Source: Firmicutes bacterium UBA4981
Lineage (GTDB): Bacteria > Bacillota > SHA-98 > UBA4971
Direction of reading: 5' to 3'
NCBI GenBank assembly: GCA_002398515.1
Contig: DGZL01000166.1
Span: 12,885 to 68,340, forward strand
Length of the DNA stretch: 55,456 bases
Shown: piece after piece, positions 5,302 through 46,692 of the stretch
Layout: each line of letters starts with the position of its first letter
How positions within the stretch are numbered: the first letter of the stretch is position 1
Program-made: the position numbers and the translations under genes
The notes under the pieces: generated by a model
The model's input: the letters and a program-made list of their open reading frames with translations, nothing else
Told to the model about the DNA's origin: nothing
Database searches by the model: none

Positions 5302-6021
5302 TTGACGAGGAGGATTCTTGCCTTGTACAAAGGTTTTGAAGTCAAACCGCCGTTTTTTGAAATTGGGCCGAAGGCTTATCTGTACGGTGAGGAATTGCTG
5401 AAGCTGGCAAAGGTTGCGGATAGAGCTGCCCAAGAGTATGACGTAAGAATAATCATGACTCCCCAATACACTGACATAAGTATGTTGGCAAGAGAAACCG
5501 AGAATCTGCTTGTCTTTGCCCAGCATATGGACGCTCTTCCAATAGGCAAAGGCCTTGGGTCCGTTCTTCCTGAGGCGGTTAAGGCTGCCGGTGCAGTAGG
5601 GGTAATGCTCAATCATGCGGAAAAGCCGATGACTGTTTCAGAACTTTATAAAGCAATCAGGCGGGCTGATGAGGTAGGACTGGTTTCAATTGTTTGTGCT
5701 GATTCCATTGCCGAAGCTGCGGCCATTGCTCATTTTGCACCGAATATCATAGTAGCTGAGCCTACGGAACTCATCGGTACAGGGCAAACAAGTGATGAGG
5801 AATATGTGCTCATGACTACGGCTGCGATAAAGGCTGTAAATCCGGAAGTACAGGTGTTGCAAGGGGCAGGAATCAGCTCCGGTGAAGATGTTTACAGGGT
5901 GATTAAAGCAGGCGCTGAAGGAACAGGATCTACAAGCGGTATCATTAAAGCCGACGATCCTGAGGCAATGATTTGCGAGATGATAAGTGCTGTACGCGCT
6001 GCATGGGATGAATGCCATTGA
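5302..6021 (+). CDS. Short triosephosphate-isomerase-family protein (TIM paralogue, probably a sugar-phosphate isomerase)
   Basis: MLNHAEKP (NHSE-type motif) and AEPTELIGTG (catalytic Glu plus IGTG) match TIM signatures. The size is that of the short archaeal-type TIMs. The real start may be TTG 5323, 9 nt after AGGAGG. Confidence 0.7.
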   Translation: MTRRILALYKGFEVKPPFFEIGPKAYLYGEELLKLAKVADRAAQEYDVRIIMTPQYTDISMLARETENLLVFAQHMDALPIGKGLGSVLPEAVKAAGAVGVMLNHAEKPMTVSELYKAIRRADEVGLVSIVCADSIAEAAAIAHFAPNIIVAEPTELIGTGQTSDEEYVLMTTAAIKAVNPEVQVLQGAGISSGEDVYRVIKAGAEGTGSTSGIIKADDPEAMICEMISAVRAAWDECH

Positions 6022-6084
6022 CAGTTCCACAGGTTTCTATACTCTAAAGAACTCTATTTTGACTGGGACAAGGAGGAAAACAAC

Positions 6085-6585
6085 GTGGCAGTTTATCGAG
6101 ACATAATTAACCTACAGTCAGAAATCTTGAATCCGACTTTTCATGATGTTACAGATGAGGTAAAGAAAATCGTCAAAGAGTCCGGTATAAAGAATGGTAT
6201 TTGCGTTGTCTATTCGCATCACACTACGTGTAGTGTGATGACTCAAGAGAATTCACACGATACCAATCATTGGGGGCTGGAATTCCTCCAACAAGATCTA
6301 TGCAATATTATGGAGAAACTCATTCCGACATGTAGAACGGAAGGTCAATATATGCATCCCGGGCCAAAGCATATTGAATTTGCTGAGAAAACCGTTTGCG
6401 AGGATGGTAAGTATAGCCTCAATACTGACGCTCATCTTCGCTCAGTGTTTTTTGGCCGTTCAGAGACTATTATCATTGCTGACGGCGAGCTACAGCTTGG
6501 CCAATTTGGGTATATATACTTTGTTGACTGGGATCAAGTTCGTGCCCGCAAGAGGGTCTGCCAGGTTCAAATCATAGGTGAGTAA
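6085..6585 (+). CDS. YjbQ / UPF0047 family protein (secondary thiamine-phosphate synthase family)
   Basis: 166 aa. SHHTTCSV and NTDAHLRSVFFGRSETIIIADGELQLGQFGYIYFVDWD match the UPF0047 signature. GTG start after an AGGAGG-like site. Confidence 0.75.
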   Translation: MAVYRDIINLQSEILNPTFHDVTDEVKKIVKESGIKNGICVVYSHHTTCSVMTQENSHDTNHWGLEFLQQDLCNIMEKLIPTCRTEGQYMHPGPKHIEFAEKTVCEDGKYSLNTDAHLRSVFFGRSETIIIADGELQLGQFGYIYFVDWDQVRARKRVCQVQIIGE

Positions 6586-6644
6586 CCCTCGAGTCATTTC
6601 ATAGCATGTAGGTTTGCCATTCGATAATGTGGGAGGACTTGATA

Positions 6645-7244
6645 ATGACAGAGCAGGCGTTGGAGTTGGCGATAGCTTCCATAGAGATCGAAAGCAAGGC
6701 CGTATCCGATATCCTGGGATATCTGGATAAAGAGCAATTCATGAGAGCAGTGGAAGCAATAAGCAAGTGTTCTAAGGTCATAACTTGTGGTAGCGGGTCT
6801 TCAGGCATTGCTGCAAAGAAGTTTGCTCACTCTCTCTGCTGTGTTGAAAAGAGCGCCCATTTTCTTTCCCCGGCTGAAGCGGTGCATGGAGGACTTGGTT
6901 GTGTAAAGAAAGATGATGTAGTTATATTCGTATCACGCGGAGGCAGAACTGTTGAATTACTGCCCATAATTGACGTATGTGAAAGAAAAGGCGCCACTAT
7001 TATCGCAATCACAGAGAACCTGGATTCGCCGCTGGCAAGAACCGCTGATATTATCGTTCAACTTAAGATTGAAAAGGAGAGCGACAAGTTCAACGTAATG
7101 GCTACCTCAAGTTTCATTGCAACAATTGCAATGTTTGATGCCATCTTGGTAGCGATTATGGAGGTAACAGATTATCAGTTGGATCAATTTGCACCAATTC
7201 ACCCGGGGGGCGCCGTCGGAGCAAGGCTTAATCCTATTAAGTGA
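6645..7244 (+). CDS. SIS-domain sugar-phosphate isomerase/binding protein (KpsF/GutQ/PHI-like)
   Basis: CGSGSSGIAAKKFAHSL and VVIFVSRGGRT..IIAIT are SIS motifs. ATG 6645 lies 7 nt after GGGAGGA. The ORF-track start 6627 overlaps that RBS. Confidence 0.75.
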   Translation: MTEQALELAIASIEIESKAVSDILGYLDKEQFMRAVEAISKCSKVITCGSGSSGIAAKKFAHSLCCVEKSAHFLSPAEAVHGGLGCVKKDDVVIFVSRGGRTVELLPIIDVCERKGATIIAITENLDSPLARTADIIVQLKIEKESDKFNVMATSSFIATIAMFDAILVAIMEVTDYQLDQFAPIHPGGAVGARLNPIK

Positions 7245-7394
7245 AAAACGTTTAACCTCTTTACTGTTTTCTGTTGGCATAATAGAGGAAACTTGTGATA
7301 CCATGTTGAACATATATATGGTATGCTAAAACCTGCTCCTAACTGCCGAAACAAGAGTTGGAGTGGGTATGTTGTTGTAGGGGAGTCAGAAATC

Positions 7395-8813
7395 ATGCGA
7401 GGATTTCAAGCTATTGTTCTCGCTGCCGGCCTTGGAACAAGAATGCGGTCAAGACTACCGAAAGTTGTCCACGAAATCTGTGGGAAGCCCATGATTACGT
7501 TGGTCCTCGACGCTTTGGAGGCTGCCGGGGCGGAACGCACTCTTGTTGTGGTAGGGCACTTGGCGGAGCTTGTTGAGGAAATTGTGGGCGCGAGGGCGGT
7601 TTGTGTTCTTCAGGCTGAGCAAAAGGGAACCGGCCATGCTGTCATGCAGGCTAAAGACGCGCTTTCCGCATATGAAGGCCGGGTGGTGGTGGCTGCGGGA
7701 GACGCCGCCTACCTGACTGAATCCGACCTGTCATCCCTTGTCAATCACCATCAAAGAACAAAGGCTTCAGCAACTCTGTTATCATCAATTCTGGAAGACC
7801 CATTCGGTTATGGGCGGGTGGTGCGTGAGGCTTCAGGACGGATACGGCGGATTGTCGAAGAGAAAGACTGCTCACCTGAGGAAGCCTTGATATGCGAAGT
7901 CAACAGCTCTGTCTACTGCTTCGAAAAACGCGACTTATTTGACGCCCTTTCCCGTATTACTCCCGATAACGTTCAGGGAGAATACTATCTGACAGATGTG
8001 ATCGAAGTAATGATAAAGGAAGGCCTTCGTGTTGAAGCTATAGTCTCTGAAGACCCCCTGGCCGCACACGGCATCAATACTAGAGTCCAACTGGCAGAGG
8101 CTGAGAGGATCTTCAGGGATAGAATACGAGAGCGCCTTATGCTCTCCGGTGTCACTATGGTGGATCCGGCAACTACGTTTGTGGACTTTGATGTCTCCAT
8201 AGGACAAGATACGAAAATCTTACCGTTTTCAGTAATTCAGGGGAAGACAGTTATCGGTGAAAACTGCACAATCGGGCCTTTTGTACGCATTTTTGACTCA
8301 AAGGTATCTGACGGGGCTTCTATAAGTAATGCTGTTGTCATTGAAGCTGAGGTGGGCAAAGACGTATCTGTAGGCCCTTACGCGTATCTTCGTACAGGGA
8401 CTGTCCTTGCTGAGCGCTCTAAGGTCGGGACTTTTGTTGAGGTGAAAAAGTCAACTGTAGGAAAAGGCAGCAAAGTTCCTCACCAGACATATCTTGGTGA
8501 CGCAACAGTGGGCGAAGGGGTTAACATAGGAGCAGGAACCATAACCTGTAACTATGACGGACATAACAAGTACCCCACGATTATTTCAGACGGAGCATTT
8601 GTGGGCAGTAACACTAACTTTGTGGCACCTGTAGAAATTGGCAGGGGAGCTTATATCGCTGCAGGTTCCACTATCACAGAAGATGTGCCTGAAGGAGCCC
8701 TTGGAATAGCCCGTGGAAAGCAGAAGAACATCCAGGGCTGGGCAGACAAAAGGCATGGGAAGAGCAGAAAATCGGGTTCTGTAGAAGATTCCGGCGGAAC
8801 CTGCGATATATAG
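7395..8813 (+). CDS. glmU: Bifunctional UDP-N-acetylglucosamine pyrophosphorylase / glucosamine-1-phosphate N-acetyltransferase
   Basis: N-terminal AIVLAAGLGTRMRS...PKVVH nucleotidyltransferase motif. C-terminal left-handed beta-helix hexapeptide repeats (VGEGVNIGAGTITCNYDG). Sits in the glmU-prs-ctc-pth order. ATG 7395 is preceded by GGGGAG. Confidence 0.9.
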   Translation: MRGFQAIVLAAGLGTRMRSRLPKVVHEICGKPMITLVLDALEAAGAERTLVVVGHLAELVEEIVGARAVCVLQAEQKGTGHAVMQAKDALSAYEGRVVVAAGDAAYLTESDLSSLVNHHQRTKASATLLSSILEDPFGYGRVVREASGRIRRIVEEKDCSPEEALICEVNSSVYCFEKRDLFDALSRITPDNVQGEYYLTDVIEVMIKEGLRVEAIVSEDPLAAHGINTRVQLAEAERIFRDRIRERLMLSGVTMVDPATTFVDFDVSIGQDTKILPFSVIQGKTVIGENCTIGPFVRIFDSKVSDGASISNAVVIEAEVGKDVSVGPYAYLRTGTVLAERSKVGTFVEVKKSTVGKGSKVPHQTYLGDATVGEGVNIGAGTITCNYDGHNKYPTIISDGAFVGSNTNFVAPVEIGRGAYIAAGSTITEDVPEGALGIARGKQKNIQGWADKRHGKSRKSGSVEDSGGTCDI

Positions 8814-8826
8814 GAGGGCTTGCGCA

Positions 8827-9801
8827 ATGAATGATAGCGGCGGGGTGCACCTAATATTACCGTCCTACAAGAGGCTGAAGTTGTTTACGGGGCTGGCTCA
8901 TCCTGAGCTTGCCTTCGAAATTGCTGCACACCTTGGCATAGGAGTCTCTGCTATGAGGGTGGACAGGTTCAAGGACGGCGAGATACGAGTAGGTATAGAC
9001 GAGACAGTCAGGGGTGTGGATTGCTTCTTAGTACAGCCTACTTGCCCACCGGTGAATGAGAATCTAATGGAGCTACTGATCATTGTCGATGCCATGCGTC
9101 GAGCATCTGCAAAAACGGTAACTGCAGTGATCCCGTACTACGGCTATGCAAGACAGGACAGGAAGGCTAAAGCCAGAGACCCGATTACCGCCAAATTAGT
9201 CGCTAACCTCCTTGTTACGGCAGGATGTGACAGGATACTGACAATAGACCTCCATGCCGGACAGGTCCAAGGTTTCTTCGATATTCCTGTCGACCCTTTG
9301 CTTGGCATGCCTATTCTGGTAAAATACGTTAGGGATTCCGGCCTTTCCAATTGTGTTATCGCATCTCCCGACATAGGGGGAACGGTACGAGCGCGGGCAA
9401 TGGCAGAGAAACTAGGCGTTGGCTTGGTAGTCATTGACAAAAGGCGTCCTGCGCCCAATATTTCAGAAGTGATGAACATTATTGGAGATGCAAAAGGTAA
9501 GACTGTTATACTAGTTGATGATATAATTGATACCGGTGGCACAATTGTCCAAGCAGCTGAGGCTCTGCATAATGCAGGAGCAAAACAGGTATTTGCAGCG
9601 TGTACCCACGCCCTCCTATCCGGGCAGGCAAGGGACAATTTGTCAGCATCGGTTCTTGAGAAGATAATTGTTACGAATACTATACCGCTGAGTGAATCCA
9701 AACGTCCTGAGAGAACTGAAGTCCTGTCAGTAGCACCTCTTTTGGGAGAGGCGATCAAGCGCATTTACCAGGACCTCCCGGTCTCTACGTTATTCGAGTA
9801 G
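8827..9801 (+). CDS. prs: Ribose-phosphate pyrophosphokinase
   Basis: YYGYARQDRK, DLHAGQVQGFFDIPVD and the PRPP-binding loop ILVDDIIDTGGT. Confidence 0.92.
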   Translation: MNDSGGVHLILPSYKRLKLFTGLAHPELAFEIAAHLGIGVSAMRVDRFKDGEIRVGIDETVRGVDCFLVQPTCPPVNENLMELLIIVDAMRRASAKTVTAVIPYYGYARQDRKAKARDPITAKLVANLLVTAGCDRILTIDLHAGQVQGFFDIPVDPLLGMPILVKYVRDSGLSNCVIASPDIGGTVRARAMAEKLGVGLVVIDKRRPAPNISEVMNIIGDAKGKTVILVDDIIDTGGTIVQAAEALHNAGAKQVFAACTHALLSGQARDNLSASVLEKIIVTNTIPLSESKRPERTEVLSVAPLLGEAIKRIYQDLPVSTLFE

Positions 9802-9830
9802 GCGGCACGGTTAGAAGGAGTTGACACGAA

Positions 9831-10508
9831 GTGAGACAGGTGATAATAAGGGGAGAATTGCGGCACCAGACAGGCAAAGGCGCTGCGAGAAGAATGCGGG
9901 CAAGCCGCAGAGTGCCTGCTGTGGTCTATGGGAGAGGCGAAGAGACGACTATTATCTCCCTGGATGAGCGCGAATTCGAGAAAGCAATACAAGCCGGGCT
10001 TGGCGGAGGAACTCTAATCAAACTGGTTCTGTCTAAGGATACGGATACGAAAGACCCGAGCAAGATTGAGAAGACTGCAATTCTCAAGGAAGTACAGTCA
10101 GATGTCGTTCGTGGTAATGTGATCCACGTGGATTTTCAGGCTATATCTTTGGATGAAGCCATTACCACAAAAGTGCCGATAGTGCTCTTAGGTGAAGAGA
10201 ACAGGCCAAGCGACGGAGGCATTATGCAGCACATGATATGGGAGCTGGAAGTGCATGCCCTTCCTATGGATATCCCTGAACGCGTAGAGGTAGACGTTTC
10301 CAAGCTGGAGATCGGCGATTCTATTAAGGTAGGCGACCTTGGGCTCCCAGAGGATGTCCAGGTAAACACTGGGGAAGAAGAAGTAATCATCCTAGTCGCT
10401 GCTCCTGAGTTAGCGGTTGAAGAGGAAGCTGAGGCCGAGGATAGCGAATTGGCGGTTGAAGGGGCAGCTGAGGATCATGTCGCTACCGGAGGACATGCAA
10501 CAGAGTAG
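9831..10508 (+). CDS. ctc: 50S ribosomal protein L25 / general stress protein Ctc
   Basis: N-terminal L25 fold motifs (RHQTGKGAARRMRASRRVPAVVYG), an acidic C-terminal extension, and the conserved position between prs and pth. Confidence 0.85.
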   Translation: MRQVIIRGELRHQTGKGAARRMRASRRVPAVVYGRGEETTIISLDEREFEKAIQAGLGGGTLIKLVLSKDTDTKDPSKIEKTAILKEVQSDVVRGNVIHVDFQAISLDEAITTKVPIVLLGEENRPSDGGIMQHMIWELEVHALPMDIPERVEVDVSKLEIGDSIKVGDLGLPEDVQVNTGEEEVIILVAAPELAVEEEAEAEDSELAVEGAAEDHVATGGHATE

Positions 10509-10527
10509 AAGGGAATCCAATAGAGGC

Positions 10528-11085
10528 GTGAAGCTTGTAGTCGGGTTGGGGAATCCAGGCAGTCAATATGAGGGTTCTCGCCATAATGCCGGGTTTAGAG
10601 TAATGGATATATTATCCGCTCGGCATGGAATCCGTTTTGGAGAGTACAAGTTTTCATCTCTTGTAGGATATGGGAAGATAGCAGGGAACGATGTTGTTCT
10701 TGCCAAGCCTCTGACGTATATGAACCGTAGTGGTCTTGCAGTCAACGCCATGGTGACTTGGTACAACTTACACCCTGGCAACATGCTGGTTATCTTAGAT
10801 GATGTTGCGTTGGAACAAGGCAGACTAAGAATTCGCGCCAAAGGAAGCGACGGCGGACATAACGGGCTGAAATCCATTATCGACGTTGTAAAAACGGAAG
10901 AAATTCCCAGGCTTCGCATAGGTGTTGGAATGCCTAATCCTACTGTAGACATGAGTTGTCATGTGCTTGACTGGTTTGACAAGGAAGAGGTTCCCACTAT
11001 TTCAGAGGCCTTGCTGAGGGCAGCGGATGCTGTATCTGTTTGGTTAGAACACGGTATTGATCGAGTTATGAATGAATTTAACTAG
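10528..11085 (+). CDS. pth: Peptidyl-tRNA hydrolase
   Basis: VKLVVGLGNPGSQYEGSRHNAGF and GSDGGHNGLKSI motifs. An in-frame GTG at 10528 gives the usual length of about 185 aa. The ORF-track start 10417 overlaps ctc. Confidence 0.9.
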   Translation: MKLVVGLGNPGSQYEGSRHNAGFRVMDILSARHGIRFGEYKFSSLVGYGKIAGNDVVLAKPLTYMNRSGLAVNAMVTWYNLHPGNMLVILDDVALEQGRLRIRAKGSDGGHNGLKSIIDVVKTEEIPRLRIGVGMPNPTVDMSCHVLDWFDKEEVPTISEALLRAADAVSVWLEHGIDRVMNEFN

Positions 11086-11207
11086 TCAACGACAAGCTCA
11101 ATAATGTGGCCAAGCTCGGTAATCCATGAATTGGCTCAAGGTAAATTTGTCTCACATTTTTGATAGATGCTTATATGTGGTATTGCCATATGTAATGGTC
11201 AATATTT

Positions 11208-11227
11208 GAAGGGGCCGAAGCCCCTTC
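11208..11227. terminator. GC-rich hairpin between the convergent pth and SASP genes (intrinsic terminator)
   Basis: GAAGGGGC-cgaa-GCCCCTTC followed by TTTGATTTG on the + strand. Confidence 0.6.
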
Positions 11228-11264
11228 TTTGATTTGTCAGCTTACCGGATTCCACGTGCCGATC

Positions 11265-11462
11265 CTACTTCCTGAGCTGGCCTGACATGAGTTGCTCGGC
11301 TTTTTGAATTAGCCCACGGACTATTAGACCGGCTTCTCGAGTGGTGATGTTGCCGTAGTCGTACGATCCATTTTCAACACCGATTTTGTCAGCGAATCCT
11401 AGTTCTTTTGCGATTTCATACTTTACTTCATCCGAAACGATGCTGCGATTTCTCCGACTCAT
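11265..11462 (-). CDS. Alpha/beta-type small acid-soluble spore protein
   Basis: 65 aa. VKYEIAKELGF ... GNITTREAGLIVRGLIQKAEQ fits the alpha/beta SASP signature. Strong RBS GGGGTGGAG. Confidence 0.85.
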   Translation of the reverse strand: MSRRNRSIVSDEVKYEIAKELGFADKIGVENGSYDYGNITTREAGLIVRGLIQKAEQLMSGQLRK

Positions 11463-11479
11463 AGCTCCACCCCTATGAA

Positions 11480-11508
11480 TAGTATCTCGCAGGAGTCAGG
11501 TTGCATGA
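11480..11508 (-). promoter_or_regulatory. Possible forespore (sigma-G-like) promoter of the SASP gene
   Basis: The minus strand reads TCATG-17 nt-GATACTA, against the consensus GHATR-17/18-CATxxTA. One mismatch in each box. Confidence 0.3.
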
Positions 11509-11867
11509 AAGAGTTTTTTAGATTGAATGGTAACAGAATAAGGTTTGACCTGATATTTCCATGAAAGACTCCATGAATCTGCTAAGAGAGCCTTGATCAT
11601 GCCGGAATATGTTGGATTTGGTGAAAGAAGTGCCTCTTACATGGGAAAAATCTTCTCACTCCATTAATCTTCAATTTTCCGCCTATTTCCTCTTCCCAAT
11701 CAATACTGCTGCTAGATACAGTATCTTGCCACATTTGAATCTGAATATCAGTTGGCATTGGATTTGCATTGAATAGAGGTGACTTTATGTCTTTGGGTTG
11801 ATTTGCGTTTATTTGCAAGCTTAAGGAAACCTCAGGAGAAAGCTTCAGTCATGCGGAGGAAGTGGAT

Positions 11868-39534: not shown

Positions 39535-39597
39535 TTCGCGTTCCCCCTCTCTGCAGGAACCAATTAGCACCTGCTCATAATATGAGCTACTAATCGC

Positions 39598-39626
39598 AGT
39601 TTAACATTGGGCTTAGGGGCTGTCAA
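39598..39626 (-). promoter_or_regulatory. Candidate sigma-A promoter of the acd-etfBA operon
   Basis: The minus strand reads TTGACA-17 nt-TAAACT, about 65 nt upstream of the GTG start. Confidence 0.5.
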
Positions 39627-39643
39627 GGAGACGAATTGCCTCC

Positions 39644-39665
39644 TCAAACAAGTACTCGCAATTGA
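39644..39665. repeat. Left copy of a 22-bp imperfect direct repeat bracketing the AT-rich island
   Basis: TCAAACAAGTACTCGCAATTGA compared with TCAAAAAGGTACTCGAAATTGA at 46119-46140. 19 of 22 positions are identical, including a 13/14 core. Confidence 0.7.
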
Positions 39666-39777
39666 TTTGTTGCCTCATATCAAGAATGTACCTGAAGGAA
39701 GTGAGTGGAAAATACCCAAGACCCAGTATTTGTGATCAACTCTATATCACCCATCTGACACATCTAGTCTAAAGAAA

Positions 39778-39805
39778 CGCCCTTTTGCTTTGAGCGAAAA
39801 GGGCG
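39778..39805 (-). terminator. Intrinsic terminator downstream of the LacI-family gene
   Basis: CGCCCTTTT / AAAAGGGCG stem. On the minus strand it is followed by TTTCTTT. Confidence 0.65.
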
Positions 39806-39824
39806 AACAAGATAGTCTATCTTT

Positions 39825-40802
39825 TCATGTGGTTTCTCTTTCTTGTAGAGTGACAGGGAGAATATTCTCTACAGTGACCTTCTCTTTATTCATCTGCTTA
39901 ATCAATATCTCCATTGCTAACTTACTCATCATTTCAATCGGTTGTCTTATTGTAGTAATTTGAGGAGTAACTAACGATGCAATACTAATATCATCATAAC
40001 CAACAATTCGCACCTCATCCGGTATAGCCTTTTTTAGTTGATAGCAGATTTTGATGGCACTAGCTGCGATTAGATCACTACTAGCAAAAATACCATCTAG
40101 ATTAGGATGTTCACTAAATAAGTCCAATATTAGACGTTCATACTGTTTGGTCTCAAAGACATTAATGTCTGTTTGCACAGTATGAAACTTGATACCCCGC
40201 TCTTGTGCAGTAGCTACAAAGGCTTCGCTACGTTTATTAGCCAAGAGATCTAAGCTAAGATTACCACAGATATGGGCTATTTGCTTACATCCCTTGTCAA
40301 TCAATAGGTTAGTCGCCAGTTTACCTCCTTGGTAGTTATTGGAAGATACATAGGGAATCTTCTCTTTGATCCTCCGATCAAAGGTAACAATAGGTAAATT
40401 GACTTTAGAATACTCATCTACGTCTATGGTGTGACTAGCCATAATAATCCCATCAACCTGGTGCCTCTTAAGCATCTCAATGTATTCTATTTCCTTTTCC
40501 CGCTCAAGTTGAGAATTGCAAAGCAATATTTTATAGCCTTCACTATGAGCGTCCTCTTCAATATAAGCAGATAACTCTCCAAAAAAAGGATGTGAGACAG
40601 TAGGGATAATTAACCCAATCAGATTAGACTTCCCGCGAAATAAGGATCGGGCAAGCTCATTAGGCTGATAATCTAATTCTTTCATGACTCTATATACTTT
40701 TTTTCTAGTAGCTTCACTAATGTATCCACGATTATTAAGAACTCGGGAGACAGTAGTAACTGTGACTCCTGCTTTTTCTGCTACATCTTTGATTGTCGGC
40801 AT
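39825..40802 (-). CDS. LacI-family transcriptional regulator (sucrose/fructan operon repressor-like)
   Basis: N-terminal HTH IKDVAEKAGVTVTTVSRVLNNRGYIS..., plus a periplasmic-binding-protein-like sugar domain. Confidence 0.88.
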   Translation of the reverse strand: MPTIKDVAEKAGVTVTTVSRVLNNRGYISEATRKKVYRVMKELDYQPNELARSLFRGKSNLIGLIIPTVSHPFFGELSAYIEEDAHSEGYKILLCNSQLEREKEIEYIEMLKRHQVDGIIMASHTIDVDEYSKVNLPIVTFDRRIKEKIPYVSSNNYQGGKLATNLLIDKGCKQIAHICGNLSLDLLANKRSEAFVATAQERGIKFHTVQTDINVFETKQYERLILDLFSEHPNLDGIFASSDLIAASAIKICYQLKKAIPDEVRIVGYDDISIASLVTPQITTIRQPIEMMSKLAMEILIKQMNKEKVTVENILPVTLQERETT

Positions 40803-40859
40803 TTATCTCCTCCTGCTGTGCAAAACTCTCCAATCTCATTGACAATATCAGCACATCCA

Positions 40860-42326
40860 TCAATCAGTCACTTGTAGATCCCACTTTTCTAGGCTCTCTA
40901 CAATGCATTCTCCCTTAGCGAATAGTTTTATTCCTATCGCATCTTGCCTGGGGTAAATCCGACCAGTCATTACTTTTTCACCTTCGTTAATGAAGATCTC
41001 AACAGAACTTCTATCCACAAAAATCCTTAGTTTCAACTTACCACTAATTAATGAGATTCCAGTTCTTCTTTCTCCTTGTGGTTCAAGGCCTGACTGATCG
41101 CGATTAAATCTTAATACTTGTTCCGCTGAGTCATACGAAATTACTGTCTCTTCCTTGGTACTGACCCGTACTTTTAAGCCAAATTCCTCCGCTTCCCGTG
41201 CGACAAAAGAAACTTGTAATTCATAACAATCACCTTTGGTCTCTAATACCTTTTCTCCGCAAAACGTAAAGTCACGCAAGGTAAATCGCTCTTGCCTATA
41301 TGTTTCGATTTCTCTCACCGGTTTGAAGTATAACCTTCCTTCTTTTGAAATAATTTCTCTAGGAAGTGTCATCGCCCCTGCCCAGTTATGCCCCAAAGTT
41401 TGCGTGGTTTCTGCTGTACCCCACATATTCATCCATGCAATCAAGATTCTTCTCCCTTGTTTATCCAAGAGTGTTTGAGGAGCATAGAAATCAAAACCAT
41501 GATCTAATGGATAAGATTCAGTAGCATTAAATGTTCCGTTTCCAAAATTCATCTGACCTACAAAGTATAGAGACGAATGAAGATTTTGAAAGTCGTTTCC
41601 CCGCGCCTGCATAAGCTGAGGACAAACCAAGAGATAATCATGGTTTTCCAAGTGGAAAAAATCAGGGCATTCCCAGGTATTGCCCATATTACCATCACTT
41701 CTTGCCGCAACACTCACGAATTGCCAATTTAATAAATCCTTTGTTTTATACAGCAACACTTGCCCATTTCCTAACCTGTCTTCTGACCCGATAAAAGCGT
41801 AGTAATATTCGTCAAGCTGTATTAGTCTGGGGTCGCGAAAATCTCGTTTATTGGCTTCATCTGGTATTAGATCGACCCCAATGACTGGATTGCTCTTAAT
41901 CTTCTTAAAAACCCTGCCATCCTCAGAATAAGCCAGACATTGAGTTTGGCGATAATCGTTTTTTTTGTTAGGACCAGTAAGAGCAAAACCTGTATACATA
42001 AGATATAATTTGTTTCTTATCTCCAAAGCACTACCAGAAAAACACCCGTCCTGATCATACGGACAGTCTGGCGCCAAGGCAATTGGCAAATAGCGCCACT
42101 TAACCAAATCTTTACTCACAGCATGCCCCCAATGCATCCTTCCCCATACTGGTTCATAGGGGTTATGCTGATGAAACAGATGATACTCCCCACCAAACTG
42201 AGTAAATCCATTGGGGTCATTAATCCAACCGTACTCGCCCATAAAATGATAGTTTAATCGATATTCAGGATTAACCTTTTCTTTGTTTTCCAGAACGAAC
42301 CTATTCGCTTTATCGATTTGCTCCAT
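40860..42326 (-). CDS. Glycoside hydrolase family 32 (sucrose-6-phosphate hydrolase / beta-fructofuranosidase)
   Basis: GWINDPNGF, FRDPRL and WECPDFF catalytic motifs. No signal peptide. Confidence 0.9.
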   Translation of the reverse strand: MEQIDKANRFVLENKEKVNPEYRLNYHFMGEYGWINDPNGFTQFGGEYHLFHQHNPYEPVWGRMHWGHAVSKDLVKWRYLPIALAPDCPYDQDGCFSGSALEIRNKLYLMYTGFALTGPNKKNDYRQTQCLAYSEDGRVFKKIKSNPVIGVDLIPDEANKRDFRDPRLIQLDEYYYAFIGSEDRLGNGQVLLYKTKDLLNWQFVSVAARSDGNMGNTWECPDFFHLENHDYLLVCPQLMQARGNDFQNLHSSLYFVGQMNFGNGTFNATESYPLDHGFDFYAPQTLLDKQGRRILIAWMNMWGTAETTQTLGHNWAGAMTLPREIISKEGRLYFKPVREIETYRQERFTLRDFTFCGEKVLETKGDCYELQVSFVAREAEEFGLKVRVSTKEETVISYDSAEQVLRFNRDQSGLEPQGERRTGISLISGKLKLRIFVDRSSVEIFINEGEKVMTGRIYPRQDAIGIKLFAKGECIVESLEKWDLQVTD

Positions 42327-42798
42327 TATTTAAGACACCCACATTCGTGTTGCAATAAACAAATCACTGTTTGTTGCAAATACTCATTCATCGTTTTCGC
42401 AGAATCCTTTTGCAGCATCCCGCAGGGAATTTGCGTATGAGTTTTCATGAGTAAATTCTTGATCCCATAACTCGGGCCGTCGAAGAGCAGAAGGTAGCTG
42501 TGATGGACCAGATGGTCAATCATGGCGGCAGTCATCTACTCATCGTGGAAAATGTTTACCCATTTGCTGAACTCCAATTCATGCTCTCTTGCTCGTAATT
42601 ACCGTAAAGTCTCAAATGCCGTCTGATCTCGCGACAGTTTTCATCGAGGACGGTGACCTCATGCGCTGTCAATCTCGCAAACAGTTGACTATTGGTGCAA
42701 CGAGGCGTTGCTTTGAGTAATGAGGCCTTAACATGTCCTGATCGCACTGCTCCAAGAGATGCAAGTTTGCGATTTCCGGTAATCCCCCAATTCTGCAA
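42326..42798 (-). mobile_element. Degenerate IS21-family remnant (IstB C-terminal fragment with an in-frame TAG, plus an upstream fragment possibly IstA-derived)
   Basis: The minus strand reads ELEFSKWVNIFHDE*MTAAMIDHLVHHSYLLLFDGPSYGIKN, which matches the conserved C-terminus of IstB helper ATPases. The preceding frame (RLTAHEVTVLDENCREIRRHLRLYG) resembles an IstA C-terminal stretch. No Walker motifs or DDE region remain. Confidence 0.6.
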
Positions 42799-42841
42799 TC
42801 CCCGGCAGTTTTACATTACGACAAACACAAATCACTTGAAA

Positions 42842-43693
42842 TCACTTGATAGCTCCCTGCATTATTCCGCTTATTATATGCTTTTGCATCAAAATGAAGA
42901 AAACAATCACAGGGATAATAGTTAATAACAAACCAGCCATTAATAAGCCATAATCTGCAGTGTAAGTGCCATGAAAATAAAAAGTTGATAAAGGCAAGGT
43001 TCTATTTGCCTTAGAAATCAGGACCAAAGAAGGGAGAAGAAAATCATTCCAGATCCAAAGTACATTTAGGATTATAAGAGTTAATGTAGTCGGCCTTAAG
43101 AGAGGAAATACTATATTGAAGAAGGTCTGTACCCTTGTGCACCCATCTATCATGGCGGCTTCTTCTAATTCCATTGGAATACTCTTAATAAATCCATGAT
43201 AGACAAAGACGGAAAGGGAAGAACCAAAACCCATATACATATAAATCAAAATCCATTTATTGTCTAGCAACTTCAAATTTGCCCCATAAATTCGTACTAA
43301 CGGAATCATGATTGACTGAAACGGAATGAGCATAGAGGTTACCATCATGAAAAACAAGAACCTATTAATTTTCCATTTAAACCTGACAAAAAAGTAAGCT
43401 GTCATCGAAGAAAATAAGGCAATGATTAATACGCTAATAGAGGTAATAATTAACGAATTAATGAAGGCATCCAAATAATTCATTTGTCTAAATGCATTAA
43501 CAAAGTTGGACACATTCGTTTTACTAATAAATCCTAGAGGATTGGAGATGATTTCTGTTCTGTTTTTGAATGAGTTTATGATCACCAGATAGAAAGGGCA
43601 TAAGTATATAAGTAACAATATGCATAAAAAGCCGTACTTAAAATAGCCAAGAATACTCTTGTCTCTTGCTTTTGCTTTTCCGTATTTCATCAC
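42842..43693 (-). CDS. ABC sugar transporter permease (MalG-like)
   Basis: 283 aa. EAA loop EAAMIDGCTRVQTFFNIVFPLLRP. Confidence 0.88.
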   Translation of the reverse strand: MMKYGKAKARDKSILGYFKYGFLCILLLIYLCPFYLVIINSFKNRTEIISNPLGFISKTNVSNFVNAFRQMNYLDAFINSLIITSISVLIIALFSSMTAYFFVRFKWKINRFLFFMMVTSMLIPFQSIMIPLVRIYGANLKLLDNKWILIYMYMGFGSSLSVFVYHGFIKSIPMELEEAAMIDGCTRVQTFFNIVFPLLRPTTLTLIILNVLWIWNDFLLPSLVLISKANRTLPLSTFYFHGTYTADYGLLMAGLLLTIIPVIVFFILMQKHIISGIMQGAIK

Positions 43694-44574
43694 ATCTCCA
43701 CCTCCAACTTCTTACTAAAGTAAACCTGCGTAAGAGTTATCGCAGCTACCATTACAAAGAGGATAAATGCTTGAGATTGTCCTATTCCATATTCTTGAGC
43801 CAAGAATGCTTTTTTATAGACATGCATGGATATTAGCTCAGTACTTCTAAAGGGGCCTCCATTAGTAAGAGCCAAGTTAACATCATAAACCATGAAACCT
43901 CTCTGCAACGTCAAAAACATAGATACAACAAACGATGGTGCCATGAGTGGAAGAATAATTCTTATTATCCTTTGTCCGTCATTGGCACCATCTATGAGGG
44001 CAGCCTCTATTACTTCTTTGGGCATATTTACCAAACCTGCAATATGTATTAGCATCATATACCCTGAATACTGCCAAACGCTGACAATAACTAATGTCCA
44101 TAATGCTTTTTGTGGATTTGCTAGCCATGAATAAGAAAACAGTTCCAAGTTCAAACTCTTACCTAGAAAAACCAGAGCGCGCGAAAAAACAAAATGCCAG
44201 ATGAGCCCTAAGATTATCCCACCAATAAGATTAGGAACAAAAAAACCTGCTCGCAGAACTTTTTCCCCTTTAATACCACTAGTCAGTAAATAGGCTAGGG
44301 CAAAAGCAACAAGATTAACAAAAACGACGGTATACAAGACATATCTGACTGTAAGCAAAAATGAATTCCAAAAGAACTGATCTTGAAAGACCGTTAAGTA
44401 GTTGCTAAAACCAATAAAACGGTAGGCTGATGCTATTCCATCCCAGTTGGTCAAGGATAAATAAATACCAAAGATAAAAGGAAAAATAACAACAGATAAG
44501 AAGACAAAAGTAGTCGGTCCAGCAAAGATTAAGAATGTTCTTAATTTCTTAAGAAAGCTCTTTGCCGTATCCAT
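43690..44574 (-). CDS. ABC sugar transporter permease (MalF-like)
   Basis: 294 aa. EAALIDGANDGQRIIRIILPLMAP. ATGA-type overlap with the next permease gene. Confidence 0.88.
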   Translation of the reverse strand: MDTAKSFLKKLRTFLIFAGPTTFVFLSVVIFPFIFGIYLSLTNWDGIASAYRFIGFSNYLTVFQDQFFWNSFLLTVRYVLYTVVFVNLVAFALAYLLTSGIKGEKVLRAGFFVPNLIGGIILGLIWHFVFSRALVFLGKSLNLELFSYSWLANPQKALWTLVIVSVWQYSGYMMLIHIAGLVNMPKEVIEAALIDGANDGQRIIRIILPLMAPSFVVSMFLTLQRGFMVYDVNLALTNGGPFRSTELISMHVYKKAFLAQEYGIGQSQAFILFVMVAAITLTQVYFSKKLEVEM

Positions 44575-44651
44575 CTCTCTTAACTCCTCATATCATACTT
44601 CCGGCAGACGCTCGTTATCATAAGATTCTATTTGGAATCCAATAATTTATC

Positions 44652-44692
44652 AGGCATTAAATAACGGGCATGATGCCCGTTATTTAATGCCT
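44652..44692. repeat. 41-nt perfect palindrome (20-nt arms, 1 central nt) between the SBP and permease genes
   Basis: AGGCATTAAATAACGGGCAT-g-ATGCCCGTTATTTAATGCCT. Confidence 0.9.
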
Positions 44693-44705
44693 TTAGTCTA
44701 AAGTT

Positions 44706-45992
44706 TTACTGCAAATTACTCCAATATGCTTCAATTTCATCAGCTAGTCCATTTCTGTCAATAGCGCCAGCTAAATATTTCTGCATCGAAGCTCCTACTA
44801 CAGACCAGTGATCTGCTGGTAATTGAGTCATGAACTCTAGAGTTTTACCATTCATAACATATTCCAATATTGATTTAGCCAGGGGATCTTTAGGTTCTAC
44901 TGTAACGTTTTTGAAGGCTGGAATGACATTGGCTTGATTTACAACATATTCTTGACCTTTCTCATCATATACCAACCAGTTCAAGAAGTTCCTTGCCTCT
45001 TTCTGCTGTGCTTCAGTGCTCTGTTCTGCATCAACAATGAAATACTTGGTTACTCCTACCGGAATCTGAGAGTTGCCATAATCATCGGGGTTATTGCTGA
45101 TCGGAACCGGCAAGAAACCATATTGGCCATTAGCAGTATCAAACTCATTTATGTTTGGCCATGCCCAGTTACCCATAAACCAAATACCAACTTTACCTTC
45201 ACCTAATAGTTCTGGTCCCCTGTCATATGTTCCAGATAATGGATCGTTTTTGTCAACATTATATTTCTTCATTGTATCAAAGGTGTCCATTAAACCAATG
45301 AATTGTCTGTTTGCTGCTAGATTAGCTTTGCCGTCTCTAAGTTTTGAGAAAAACTCATCAATACCAGAAGAATTGGCGGACTGGGTTGTATAAGACACAG
45401 CCAAGAAATGTGCACCTAAAGACCAATCCATAGGTGAAATAACTAAAGCTCCTGTACCTGAGGATTCGATTTTTCTGAACAATGCTTCCAAGTCAGCGGT
45501 GGTCTTAATTGACATAGGATCAAACTTGCCACCCACCGCTTTGTCCACTACTTGTTTGTTGTAGATAAAACCATATGCTTCGACCGTAAAGGGAAACCCG
45601 ATTACTCTGCCATTAGGTAAGGTTGACCTGTCCAAACTTCTCTCAATTGCATCTCTTACCCATTGTTCTGCAGTAAGGTCTAAAGCTTTATCTTGGAATC
45701 TCACTACATCTGCAGGATCCAGCATAGCGATGGTAGGCGCATTACCTGCAGAATACATAGCCATAGTCCTCTCAAAAGGCGATTGCCCAACCGGACAAGG
45801 TACGATCTCTACTTTTACTCCAGAAGTTGCCCTGTTATAGTGCTCTGCAATCTCCTCCAATTGAGTTTGAATCTCACCTTTAGAATTAAGTACGGTTACA
45901 TGGACAGTTGTTTGAGCAAACCCCAGAGCGGATGAAAGAGAAAACATAAGCATTAAACAGAGTGCTAACGTTAGGAGTCTCGCTTTCTTCAT
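44706..45992 (-). CDS. ABC transporter sugar-binding protein (family 1), secreted
   Basis: 428 aa. Signal peptide MKKARLLTLALCLMLMFSLSSALGFA. RBS GAGGAGGAAGAAGC before the ATG. Confidence 0.85.
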   Translation of the reverse strand: MKKARLLTLALCLMLMFSLSSALGFAQTTVHVTVLNSKGEIQTQLEEIAEHYNRATSGVKVEIVPCPVGQSPFERTMAMYSAGNAPTIAMLDPADVVRFQDKALDLTAEQWVRDAIERSLDRSTLPNGRVIGFPFTVEAYGFIYNKQVVDKAVGGKFDPMSIKTTADLEALFRKIESSGTGALVISPMDWSLGAHFLAVSYTTQSANSSGIDEFFSKLRDGKANLAANRQFIGLMDTFDTMKKYNVDKNDPLSGTYDRGPELLGEGKVGIWFMGNWAWPNINEFDTANGQYGFLPVPISNNPDDYGNSQIPVGVTKYFIVDAEQSTEAQQKEARNFLNWLVYDEKGQEYVVNQANVIPAFKNVTVEPKDPLAKSILEYVMNGKTLEFMTQLPADHWSVVGASMQKYLAGAIDRNGLADEIEAYWSNLQ

Positions 45993-46047
45993 GCTTCTTC
46001 CTCCTCAACTCGTTTTTTTTTGGGGCGGCCGCTTCCCTTGGCCGTTG

Positions 46048-46095
46048 TTGAAACGGTTTATTACCATTATATAACTGCTTTGTAACATATGTCAA
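46048..46095 (-). promoter_or_regulatory. Consensus sigma-A promoter plus LacI-type half-palindromic operator for the island operon
   Basis: The minus strand reads TTGACA (46095-46090)-18 nt-TATAAT (46071-46066). ATAAAC-C-GTTTCAA (46061-46048) overlaps the predicted start site. Confidence 0.7.
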
Positions 46096-46118
46096 CGGCT
46101 TGACATATTATTGTCTCA

Positions 46119-46140
46119 TCAAAAAGGTACTCGAAATTGA
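46119..46140. repeat. Right copy of the 22-bp imperfect direct repeat bracketing the AT-rich island
   Basis: TCAAAAAGGTACTCGAAATTGA. See 39644-39665. Confidence 0.7.
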
Positions 46141-46272
46141 CTCGAGTTGGGTAACTGCTGCCTGTGATTTAGTATCATTAGCTGACATATTTGGAAGAGT
46201 TAATATTTGGATGTGGAGCACGTATAGTGAAGGCAAAGAAAGCAGAGCATCTAAGAAAAGGAAGATATCCTT

Positions 46273-46629
46273 ATGGATATGGCCAGAGTATCATCCAAGG
46301 GTCAGGTCACGATTCCGGTGGCGATTCGTAGGAAACTCGGGCTGAAGGAAGGCAATAAGGTTCTCTTGAGAGAGAAAGGCCAGGATGTAGTCTTAATGAA
46401 CTTGAACCGTATTGCTTTTTCTGAGTTCTAAAAGGAAATGGCAGGTGAAGCCGAAAGGGTTGGCATCACTGGCGAACATGTAATCAAACCCGGTAGTGCA
46501 AGGTCGCAATCTCTTCCTACGAGTCATGCGTTCTCCGGTGGTATAGCACTCTGTCCTATTATTCTCGTCCACCTAAGCCTCTTCAAGAGGCTGATTCCCT
46601 GCCACATGTTCATGATTACAGTTCATTAG
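46273..46629 (+). pseudogene. AbrB/MazE/SpoVT-type DNA-binding protein gene interrupted by an in-frame TAA
   Basis: MDMARVSSKGQVTIPVAIRRKLGLKEGNKVLLREKGQDVVLMNLNRIAFSEF-TAA(46429-31)-KEMAGEAERVGITGE... continues in the same frame as ORF 46438..46629. The N-terminal half is a clear SpoVT-AbrB swapped-hairpin motif. It is absent from the ORF track because it is under 60 aa. Confidence 0.6.
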
Positions 46630-46647
46630 AGGCGTCCGTAGCCCCTA

Positions 46648-46692
46648 TTGACAAAAGTTTCTTGACGAGGTATATTATACCCCGTAGGGTAT
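46648..46692 (+). promoter_or_regulatory. Sigma-A promoter with an overlapping CsoR-type operator
   Basis: TTGACA (46648-53)-17 nt-TATATT (46671-76), followed immediately by the palindrome ATACCC-cgta-GGGTAT (46677-92). Confidence 0.75.

Follow-up and report, generated by a model that had tools for sequence, protein, structure and literature searches.

A low-GC sucrose/fructo-oligosaccharide module between relic insertion-sequence ends in the acd-csoR promoter spacer of Firmicutes bacterium UBA4981

The window analysed here is a stretch of 55,456 nucleotides (nt) on contig DGZL01000166.1 of Firmicutes bacterium UBA4981 (genome G000 in what follows). It contains a low-GC island that lies between the divergent promoters of the acd-etf operon and of csoR and carries, towards both ends, one copy of an imperfect 22-bp direct repeat. 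An earlier note, made from the letters of this DNA, had described the block as a horizontally acquired sucrose/fructo-oligosaccharide (FOS) module and the repeats as an att-like duplication left by site-specific insertion.

The core of the island is a sugar module on the minus strand (39743-46108). It encodes a LacI-family repressor (39825-40802; Pfam LacI and Peripla_BP_1/3, likewise recognised by NCBIfam) and a glycoside hydrolase of family 32 (GH32; 40860-42326; Pfam Glyco_hydro_32N/C) from the beta-fructofuranosidase/sucrose-6-phosphate hydrolase family, which scored 430 bits, over the cutoff, against the NCBIfam model TIGR01322 (scrB_fam). Next to it lies the relic of an IS21-type element, a C-terminal fragment of IstB with weak matches only (42326-42841; E about 1e-3). 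Two permease genes of the ATP-binding cassette (ABC) type (42842-43693 and 43690-44574; Pfam BPD_transp_1) and the gene for a sugar ABC substrate-binding protein (SBP; 44706-45992; weak MalE-like NCBIfam match) make up the uptake system of the cluster, which has no ATPase gene of its own. The gene content and strand are as given in the earlier note.

The module has its own promoter/operator region (46048-46108, minus strand), with a -35 box TTGACA (46095-46090), an 18-nt spacer and a -10 box TATAAT (46071-46066). Within this region lies the palindrome ATATGTCAAC-GG-CTTGACATAT (46087-46108), which belongs to the module, as it is conserved in the related locus of 'Firmicutes bacterium UBA5486', where no insertion sequence (IS) is present. 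This palindrome and a half-site at 46048-46061 are candidate operators of the module.

The compositional contrast with the host is sharp. The inserted DNA (7016 nt) has 39.7% GC, the lowest value in the 2.46-Mb assembly, of which 1459 windows of 7 kb were measured (mean 49.6%, sd 1.7%). In 1-kb windows, 39.5-46 kb ranges between 35 and 42% GC, whereas most of the remaining window has 47-53%. GC at third codon positions (GC3) is 0.33-0.39 for five island genes, in the lowest 0.3-1.7 percentile of 904 long open reading frames (ORFs) of the genome, whereas the acd and etf genes stand at the 51st-55th percentile of the same set. The AT-richness of the block had been read from spot counts, and the GC and codon-usage profile proposed as a check upholds it.

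To define the boundaries, 40 related genomes were searched with a 10.4-kb query around the locus and the junctions were then read. Empty sites were found in four congeners (G007, G003, G006 and G001), in each of which a single contig holds both promoters, acd and csoR, with only 17-36 variable nt between their -35 boxes. Relatives with an empty site, which the earlier note had proposed to look for, thus exist, and none of the four contains any copy of the 22-mer. Judged against them, the inserted DNA extends over about 39632-46627. The low-GC island itself stands, although the bounds of 39644 and 46140 first assigned to it do not: the left 22-mer begins 12 nt inside the insert and the right one ends about 490-500 nt before its right edge. 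The acd-etf promoter (39598-39626, minus strand; -35 TTGACA at 39626-39621, 17-nt spacer, -10 TAAACT at 39603-39598) is also present in the four empty-site relatives and is therefore native, not supplied by an IS.

The 22-mers, TCAAACAAGTACTCGCAATTGA (39644-39665) and TCAAAAAGGTACTCGAAATTGA (46119-46140), both read on the plus strand and both intergenic, are identical at 19 of 22 positions, at most 7 of them consecutive. When the two intergenic segments (254 and 280 nt) were shuffled 2000 times with dinucleotide counts preserved, no pair reached 19/22 and 0.25% reached 18, and on this ground we do not regard the match as due to chance. Positions, identity, direct orientation and intergenic location were all reproduced as described before, and so was the claim that the pair is not fortuitous. 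Other 19/22 pairs do exist within the 9-kb region (repeat family D7). The left copy stands 17 nt from the acd -35 box.

In the whole genome, the two copies were accompanied by a single further match (20/22; contig C154, 34627-34648), which was rejected as a third copy because it is part of a different, abundant repeat built on GTGGTCGAAAA. That repeat has 91 sites in the genome, for example at the ends of contigs C38, C43, C116, C121 and C154, and is often arrayed at contig ends with a spacing of ~30 nt. It may be a multi-site terminus, either of another mobile element of related type or of miniature inverted-repeat transposable elements.

The identity of the 22-mers became apparent from the relatives search. 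Positions 39632-39722 had short matches in five further genera, in part at contig ends, and seven copies align through repeats, ribosome-binding site and ATG. The order conserved at this left end of an IS is CGAA-TTGCCTCATCAAAAANGTRCTYGAAAT, a second similar repeat, a ribosome-binding site and the ATG of a 426-amino acid (aa) ORF, which in intact copies carries an rve integrase-core domain (PF00665); the repeat is also present twice, inverted, at the opposite end. Intact copies, ~1.5 kb in length with a single ORF, occur in other genera and are flanked by 5-bp target duplications (CACAT in G013, GATTT in G020). The termini, (CG)ACTTGCCTCA...TGAGGCAACGGG, were fixed by a collapsed contig of 1512 nt (L071) from a Desulfovirgula metagenome-assembled genome (MAG). 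The transposases form a very large family, which is usually present in multiple copies; its match to the NCBIfam IS481 model is below threshold (51 bits, cutoff 224), and the source records say only 'transposase family protein'. With a length of ~1.5 kb, a single rve-type DDE transposase of 410-430 aa, a 5-bp duplication and two repeats per end, the element resembles the group of Leptospira biflexa ISLbi1, and it probably belongs to this ISLbi1 group of ISNCY, an assignment that rests on shared features and not on comparison with an ISfinder reference.

Two relics of the left end of this IS are present in the window, both on the plus strand and in the same orientation. The left one (39632-39727) begins with the terminus CGAATTGCC and contains the outer repeat (39636-39660) and the inner repeat (39670-39696), followed by the ribosome-binding site GGAAGTGAG, a dead start codon, ATA (39713), and a few codons; its identity to the left end of the intact G013 element is 87% over 91 nt (E=3e-26). 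The right one (46110-46144) retains the outer repeat only (46111-46135), contains the right 22-mer and is 83-88% identical to the left ends of the G013 and G020 elements over 34-35 nt (E=3e-6; 88% over 46111-46144 against G013). The left 22-mer corresponds to IS positions 13-34. These alignments show the 22-mers to be part of the outer terminal repeat of the IS left end, presumed to be a transposase-binding site. Neither the IS right end nor any other piece of the element was detected in 46145-46640 (blastn, word size 7). We also considered whether the right stub supplies the outward -35 box (TGTCAA) of the sugar operon, and rejected this, as the IS-free UBA5486 locus keeps the palindrome ATATGTCAAC..TTGACATAT.

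More relics of the IS right end were found elsewhere in the genome, on contigs C24 and C164, and relics are also present in congeners. On C24 (L068), two same-orientation clusters of right-end repeats (5846-5925 and 10869-11060) bracket a second accessory module on the minus strand, with a LacI regulator, a GFO/IDH/MocA oxidoreductase, a Zn-dependent alcohol dehydrogenase and a creatininase-family protein. About 5845-11517 of this contig is missing from G002, in a gap whose left edge coincides with the first IS relic; in most other congeners the module is present, at an identity similar to that of the flanks.

The IS family has a marked preference for its landing sites. We collected left flanks of IS copies from many phyla (L070-L149), aligned them at the IS terminus and obtained 54 distinct ones. 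Read outward from the terminus, they give the logo N5-TTGACa-N17-TAnnnT; 37% of them match at least 4 of 6 positions in both hexamers at this fixed register, against 0.07% of background positions. Insertion of this family thus occurs in fixed orientation, 5 bp upstream of -35 boxes of the sigma-70 type. Identical IS copies in one genome have unrelated flanks, with only the -35 and -10 hexamers in common. The left junction of the window reads TGTCAA-GGAGA-CGAATTGCC, with the IS terminus exactly 5 bp from the acd -35 box, and it is canonical for this promoter-seeking family in both position and orientation. The five bases GGAGA (39627-39631) are native and occupy the expected position of a target-site duplication; G004 and G005, which have no IS there, read GCTGTCAAGGAGAG at this spot. 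TGTCAA was considered as a part of the IS terminus and rejected, given the unrelated flanks of identical copies within a genome and the native acd promoter of the empty sites.

The IS terminus itself holds TTGMCT, 4 nt from the tip. As this motif mirrors the target TTGACA, recognition of a pseudo-end by the transposase is a possible targeting mechanism, besides guidance by RNA polymerase. A literature search returned no paper on promoter-upstream targeting for this rve-type IS family. A comparable habit has been described for the TnGBS integrative and conjugative elements, ISLre2 and ISKra4, which encode Mutator-like DDE transposases and insert 15-17 bp upstream of sigma-A promoters (PMC3942029). 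As in our case, insertion is oriented, occurs just upstream of the -35 box of the housekeeping sigma factor and leaves the promoter intact (PMC3942029). The element described here differs by its transposase, which is of the unrelated rve superfamily, by the distance of 5 bp and by the end that adjoins the promoter, which is the left and not the right one.

The relationships of the island differ from those of its host. The islands of G000 and G002 are 94-97% identical over the full length, against 79-88% for the flanks, and this step in identity falls within ~100 nt of the junctions. The G002 island has the same junctions, but lacks about 39670-39752 and 46191-46589. The closest relative of G000, however, is G007 (acd identity 96%, compared to 92% for G002; FolP identity 95%, compared to 86%), and G007 has an empty site. 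The SBP is 96% identical (aa) to that of G002 and 88% to that of UBA5486; no SBP orthologue was found in G007, only a weak match of 27% identity. These relations are discordant with those of FolP, and the different taxonomic affinity of island genes for which the earlier note had suggested a check was thus found. UBA5486 is the only other genome in the species-representative collection with a close copy of the module (DIPO01000030.1), which matches positions 39743-46108 at 86-89% nucleotide identity (blastn and junction alignments). Its FolP, by contrast, is only 49% identical to that of G000, compared to 60% for G020, so UBA5486 is more distant than a same-class relative; it has no acd homologue. 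The surroundings of its module have 30-41% GC. The nucleotide match, set against the FolP distance and taken with these low-GC surroundings, places the origin of the module in a UBA5486-like low-GC Bacillota lineage; the module has lately been shared between two species of the host genus.

The UBA5486 locus (L043) has ~1.2 kb of extra DNA between lacI and the GH32 gene (about 9469-10691), and a comparison of coordinates leaves only 63 nt where the window holds a 485-nt IS21 relic. Its homology to the window ends at about 46108, just before the right IS stub. Contigs with the exact SBP of the island all have the same structure and come from the same species in other samples.

Altogether, we consider the block to be a horizontally acquired sucrose/FOS module, with a LacI repressor, an intracellular GH32 enzyme and ABC uptake, whose 22-mers are relic IS left ends; we put the probability of this reading at about 0.8. 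Empty sites, composition and the discordant gene phylogeny bear out the acquisition as first proposed. Its proposed mechanism fared differently. If the 22-mers were attL/attR-like duplications of a chromosomal target, made by an integrase later lost, they should be expected to look much as they do, that is, direct, not due to chance and near both ends of a low-GC block. However, the 22-mer is missing from all four empty sites, both copies lie inside the insert, the right one about 500 nt from the edge, and the left one runs as part of an IS end into the ribosome-binding site and start codon of a transposase gene. Neither an integrase domain nor a tyrosine or serine recombinase or its relic was found with Pfam and NCBIfam in any ORF of 39.6-46.7 kb. 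Nor is there a tRNA or other usual att target; a tRNA or structured RNA in this role was rejected, as ARAGORN and Rfam gave no match in 39.0-47.5 kb. An att scar is very improbable on these grounds. We give just as little credence to the 22-mer as an operator through which a transcription factor of the host or the island acts on the acd and sugar promoters. Both copies do lie upstream of leftward promoters, the left one 17 nt from the -35 box, but the genome holds only these two and the one 20/22 match that belongs to another repeat, relatives with an intact acd promoter at their empty sites have no 22-mer, and neither has the sugar promoter of UBA5486. Moreover, the sequence has no dyad symmetry, and the operator candidates of the module lie elsewhere (46087-46108 and 46048-46061). 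The earlier note had named recurrence of the 22-mer at many unrelated promoters as the mark of a transcription-factor site. In effect such recurrence is real, but its reason is the promoter-seeking habit of an IS end.

As for the arrival of the island, relics of the same IS stand in direct orientation at both ends of the donor-homologous DNA (39632-39727 and 46110-46144), and two direct IS copies once flanked the module before both decayed to stubs. They could have delivered it as a composite transposon that moved by its two outer ends, left in one copy and right in the other; or a circle with one IS copy could have recombined with an IS that already resided upstream of the acd promoter. After either route, deletions would have removed the IS bodies. 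The already decayed island would then have passed between the G000 and G002 lineages via homologous recombination in the conserved promoter regions, as is suggested by the same truncated stubs and the identical csoR promoter spacer of both genomes, which is unlike that of G007. To this sequence of events as a whole we assign about even odds. Several points weigh against it. Where the insert ends on the right, near 46627, neither an IS right end nor a full target duplication is recognisable, only AGA of the expected GGAGA, whereas the left terminus abuts native GGAGA. The right stub lies 15 nt instead of 9 from the -35 box of the module (TGTCAA to TTGTCTCA) and is without the terminal CGA, so its junction may derive from a deletion. 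No intact transposase of the family was found in the G000 assembly or in 7 congeners, which are fragmented MAGs of 79-96% completeness, and such assemblies often miss IS copies. The placement in the ISLbi1 group, as stated, is only probable. Finally, two independent promoter-seeking landings would likewise give direct repeats, because both promoters fire leftwards and the orientation of the IS is fixed.

Such landings, upstream of the acd and module promoters, on an island that came otherwise (e.g., by recombination of incoming DNA), are possible, if somewhat on the improbable side. They would agree with the promoter-seeking rule and fixed orientation of the family, with the lack of IS ends at the UBA5486 module and with the relics of the IS scattered through the host genus, and in that case the repeats would be uninformative on how the island moved. 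However, donor-like homology ends at the IS stub on both sides (39743 and 46108), which would need two deletions at exactly these places; the right stub is not at the canonical 5 bp from a -35 box and hence does not mark a clean promoter-seeking insertion; and on contig C24, too, a variable module stands between relics of the IS in the same orientation. Delivery by the IS pair can be put in a more specific form, with a promoter-seeking ISLbi1-type IS as cargo vehicle: two copies would have captured the 6.4-kb sugar operon, and the composite would have landed 5 bp upstream of the acd -35 box. This proposal is tentative, and we hold it to be rather unlikely. If true, divergent-promoter spacers would be hot spots at which accessory operons can dock safely, and the C24 module missing from G002 would be another product of the same process.

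The remaining part of the insert and its surroundings deserve a brief description. The 400-nt segment that is missing from G002 (46191-46589, plus strand) contains a 52-codon AbrB/MazE-like gene (46273-46431). Its GC3 is host-like (0.57), which places it outside the low-GC module, and the genome has no paralogous source for it. No toxin partner was noted beside it; the only adjacent ORF (46438-46629) has no Pfam match. The rest of the inserted DNA (46590-46627) is common to G002 and does not match the IS. Native sequence resumes in the segment 46628-46694 (plus strand), which starts with a remnant of the spacer, AGAGGCGTCCGTAGCC (cf. GGGGTCCTATGGTCGC in G007), and includes the csoR promoter (-35 TATATT at 46648-46653) and the operator ATACCCCGTAGGGTAT.

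The acd-csoR promoter spacer is a variable rearrangement hot spot in the host genus. In G004 (end of contig C6, L019), a tandem array (GTTGTAGCCTTCA)n is located upstream of the csoR promoter, and in G005 (C64, L018) the spacer holds unrelated DNA; in both genomes the contig breaks on the acd side. In the 5' leader of acd, a stretch of 44 nt (39563-39606) contains a dyad, GCTCATA-A-TATGAGC, within TTAGCACC...CTACTAA. This stretch is 86-91% conserved beside acd homologues in a number of genera, recurs at a few loci elsewhere and may serve the acd-etf operon as an operator or an RNA hairpin.

The gene content of the module resembles the msm/FOS-type operons of lactobacilli and streptococci, which have the composition MsmR-MsmEFGK-BfrA. 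Common to both are a LacI-type regulator, an ABC SBP, two permeases and an intracellular GH32 enzyme in one regulated cluster. The cluster described here has no gene for an ATPase (msmK) or a sucrose phosphorylase, its gene order differs and it carries an IS21 relic between the permease and GH32 genes. The arrangement as a whole is reminiscent of composite transposons with direct IS copies, or of Campbell-type integration of circular DNA through IS homology: a cargo operon lies between two direct copies of one IS, the outer left IS terminus abuts host DNA, and the cargo is foreign in composition and patchy among congeners. In contrast to composite transposons, both IS copies are stubs of 35-96 nt, a right terminus and a complete target duplication are missing, and no intact transposase was found in the genome, so that mobility as a unit is presumptive.

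Overall, the locus is an ordinary IS-associated accessory operon and not the scar of an integrase, and it is instructive mainly for what its repeats are. For the annotation of similar loci, it shows that short direct repeats edging a low-GC island are not necessarily att sites but can be IS-end stubs, and that the end of a promoter-seeking IS can pass for a promoter-proximal regulatory site. The data set of 54 flanks supports the promoter-seeking habit of this IS family. For the organism itself, the findings document that a sucrose/fructan uptake module was recently transferred across lineages into an acyl-CoA-oxidising, syntroph-like genus of the Bacillota that occurs in fermenters.

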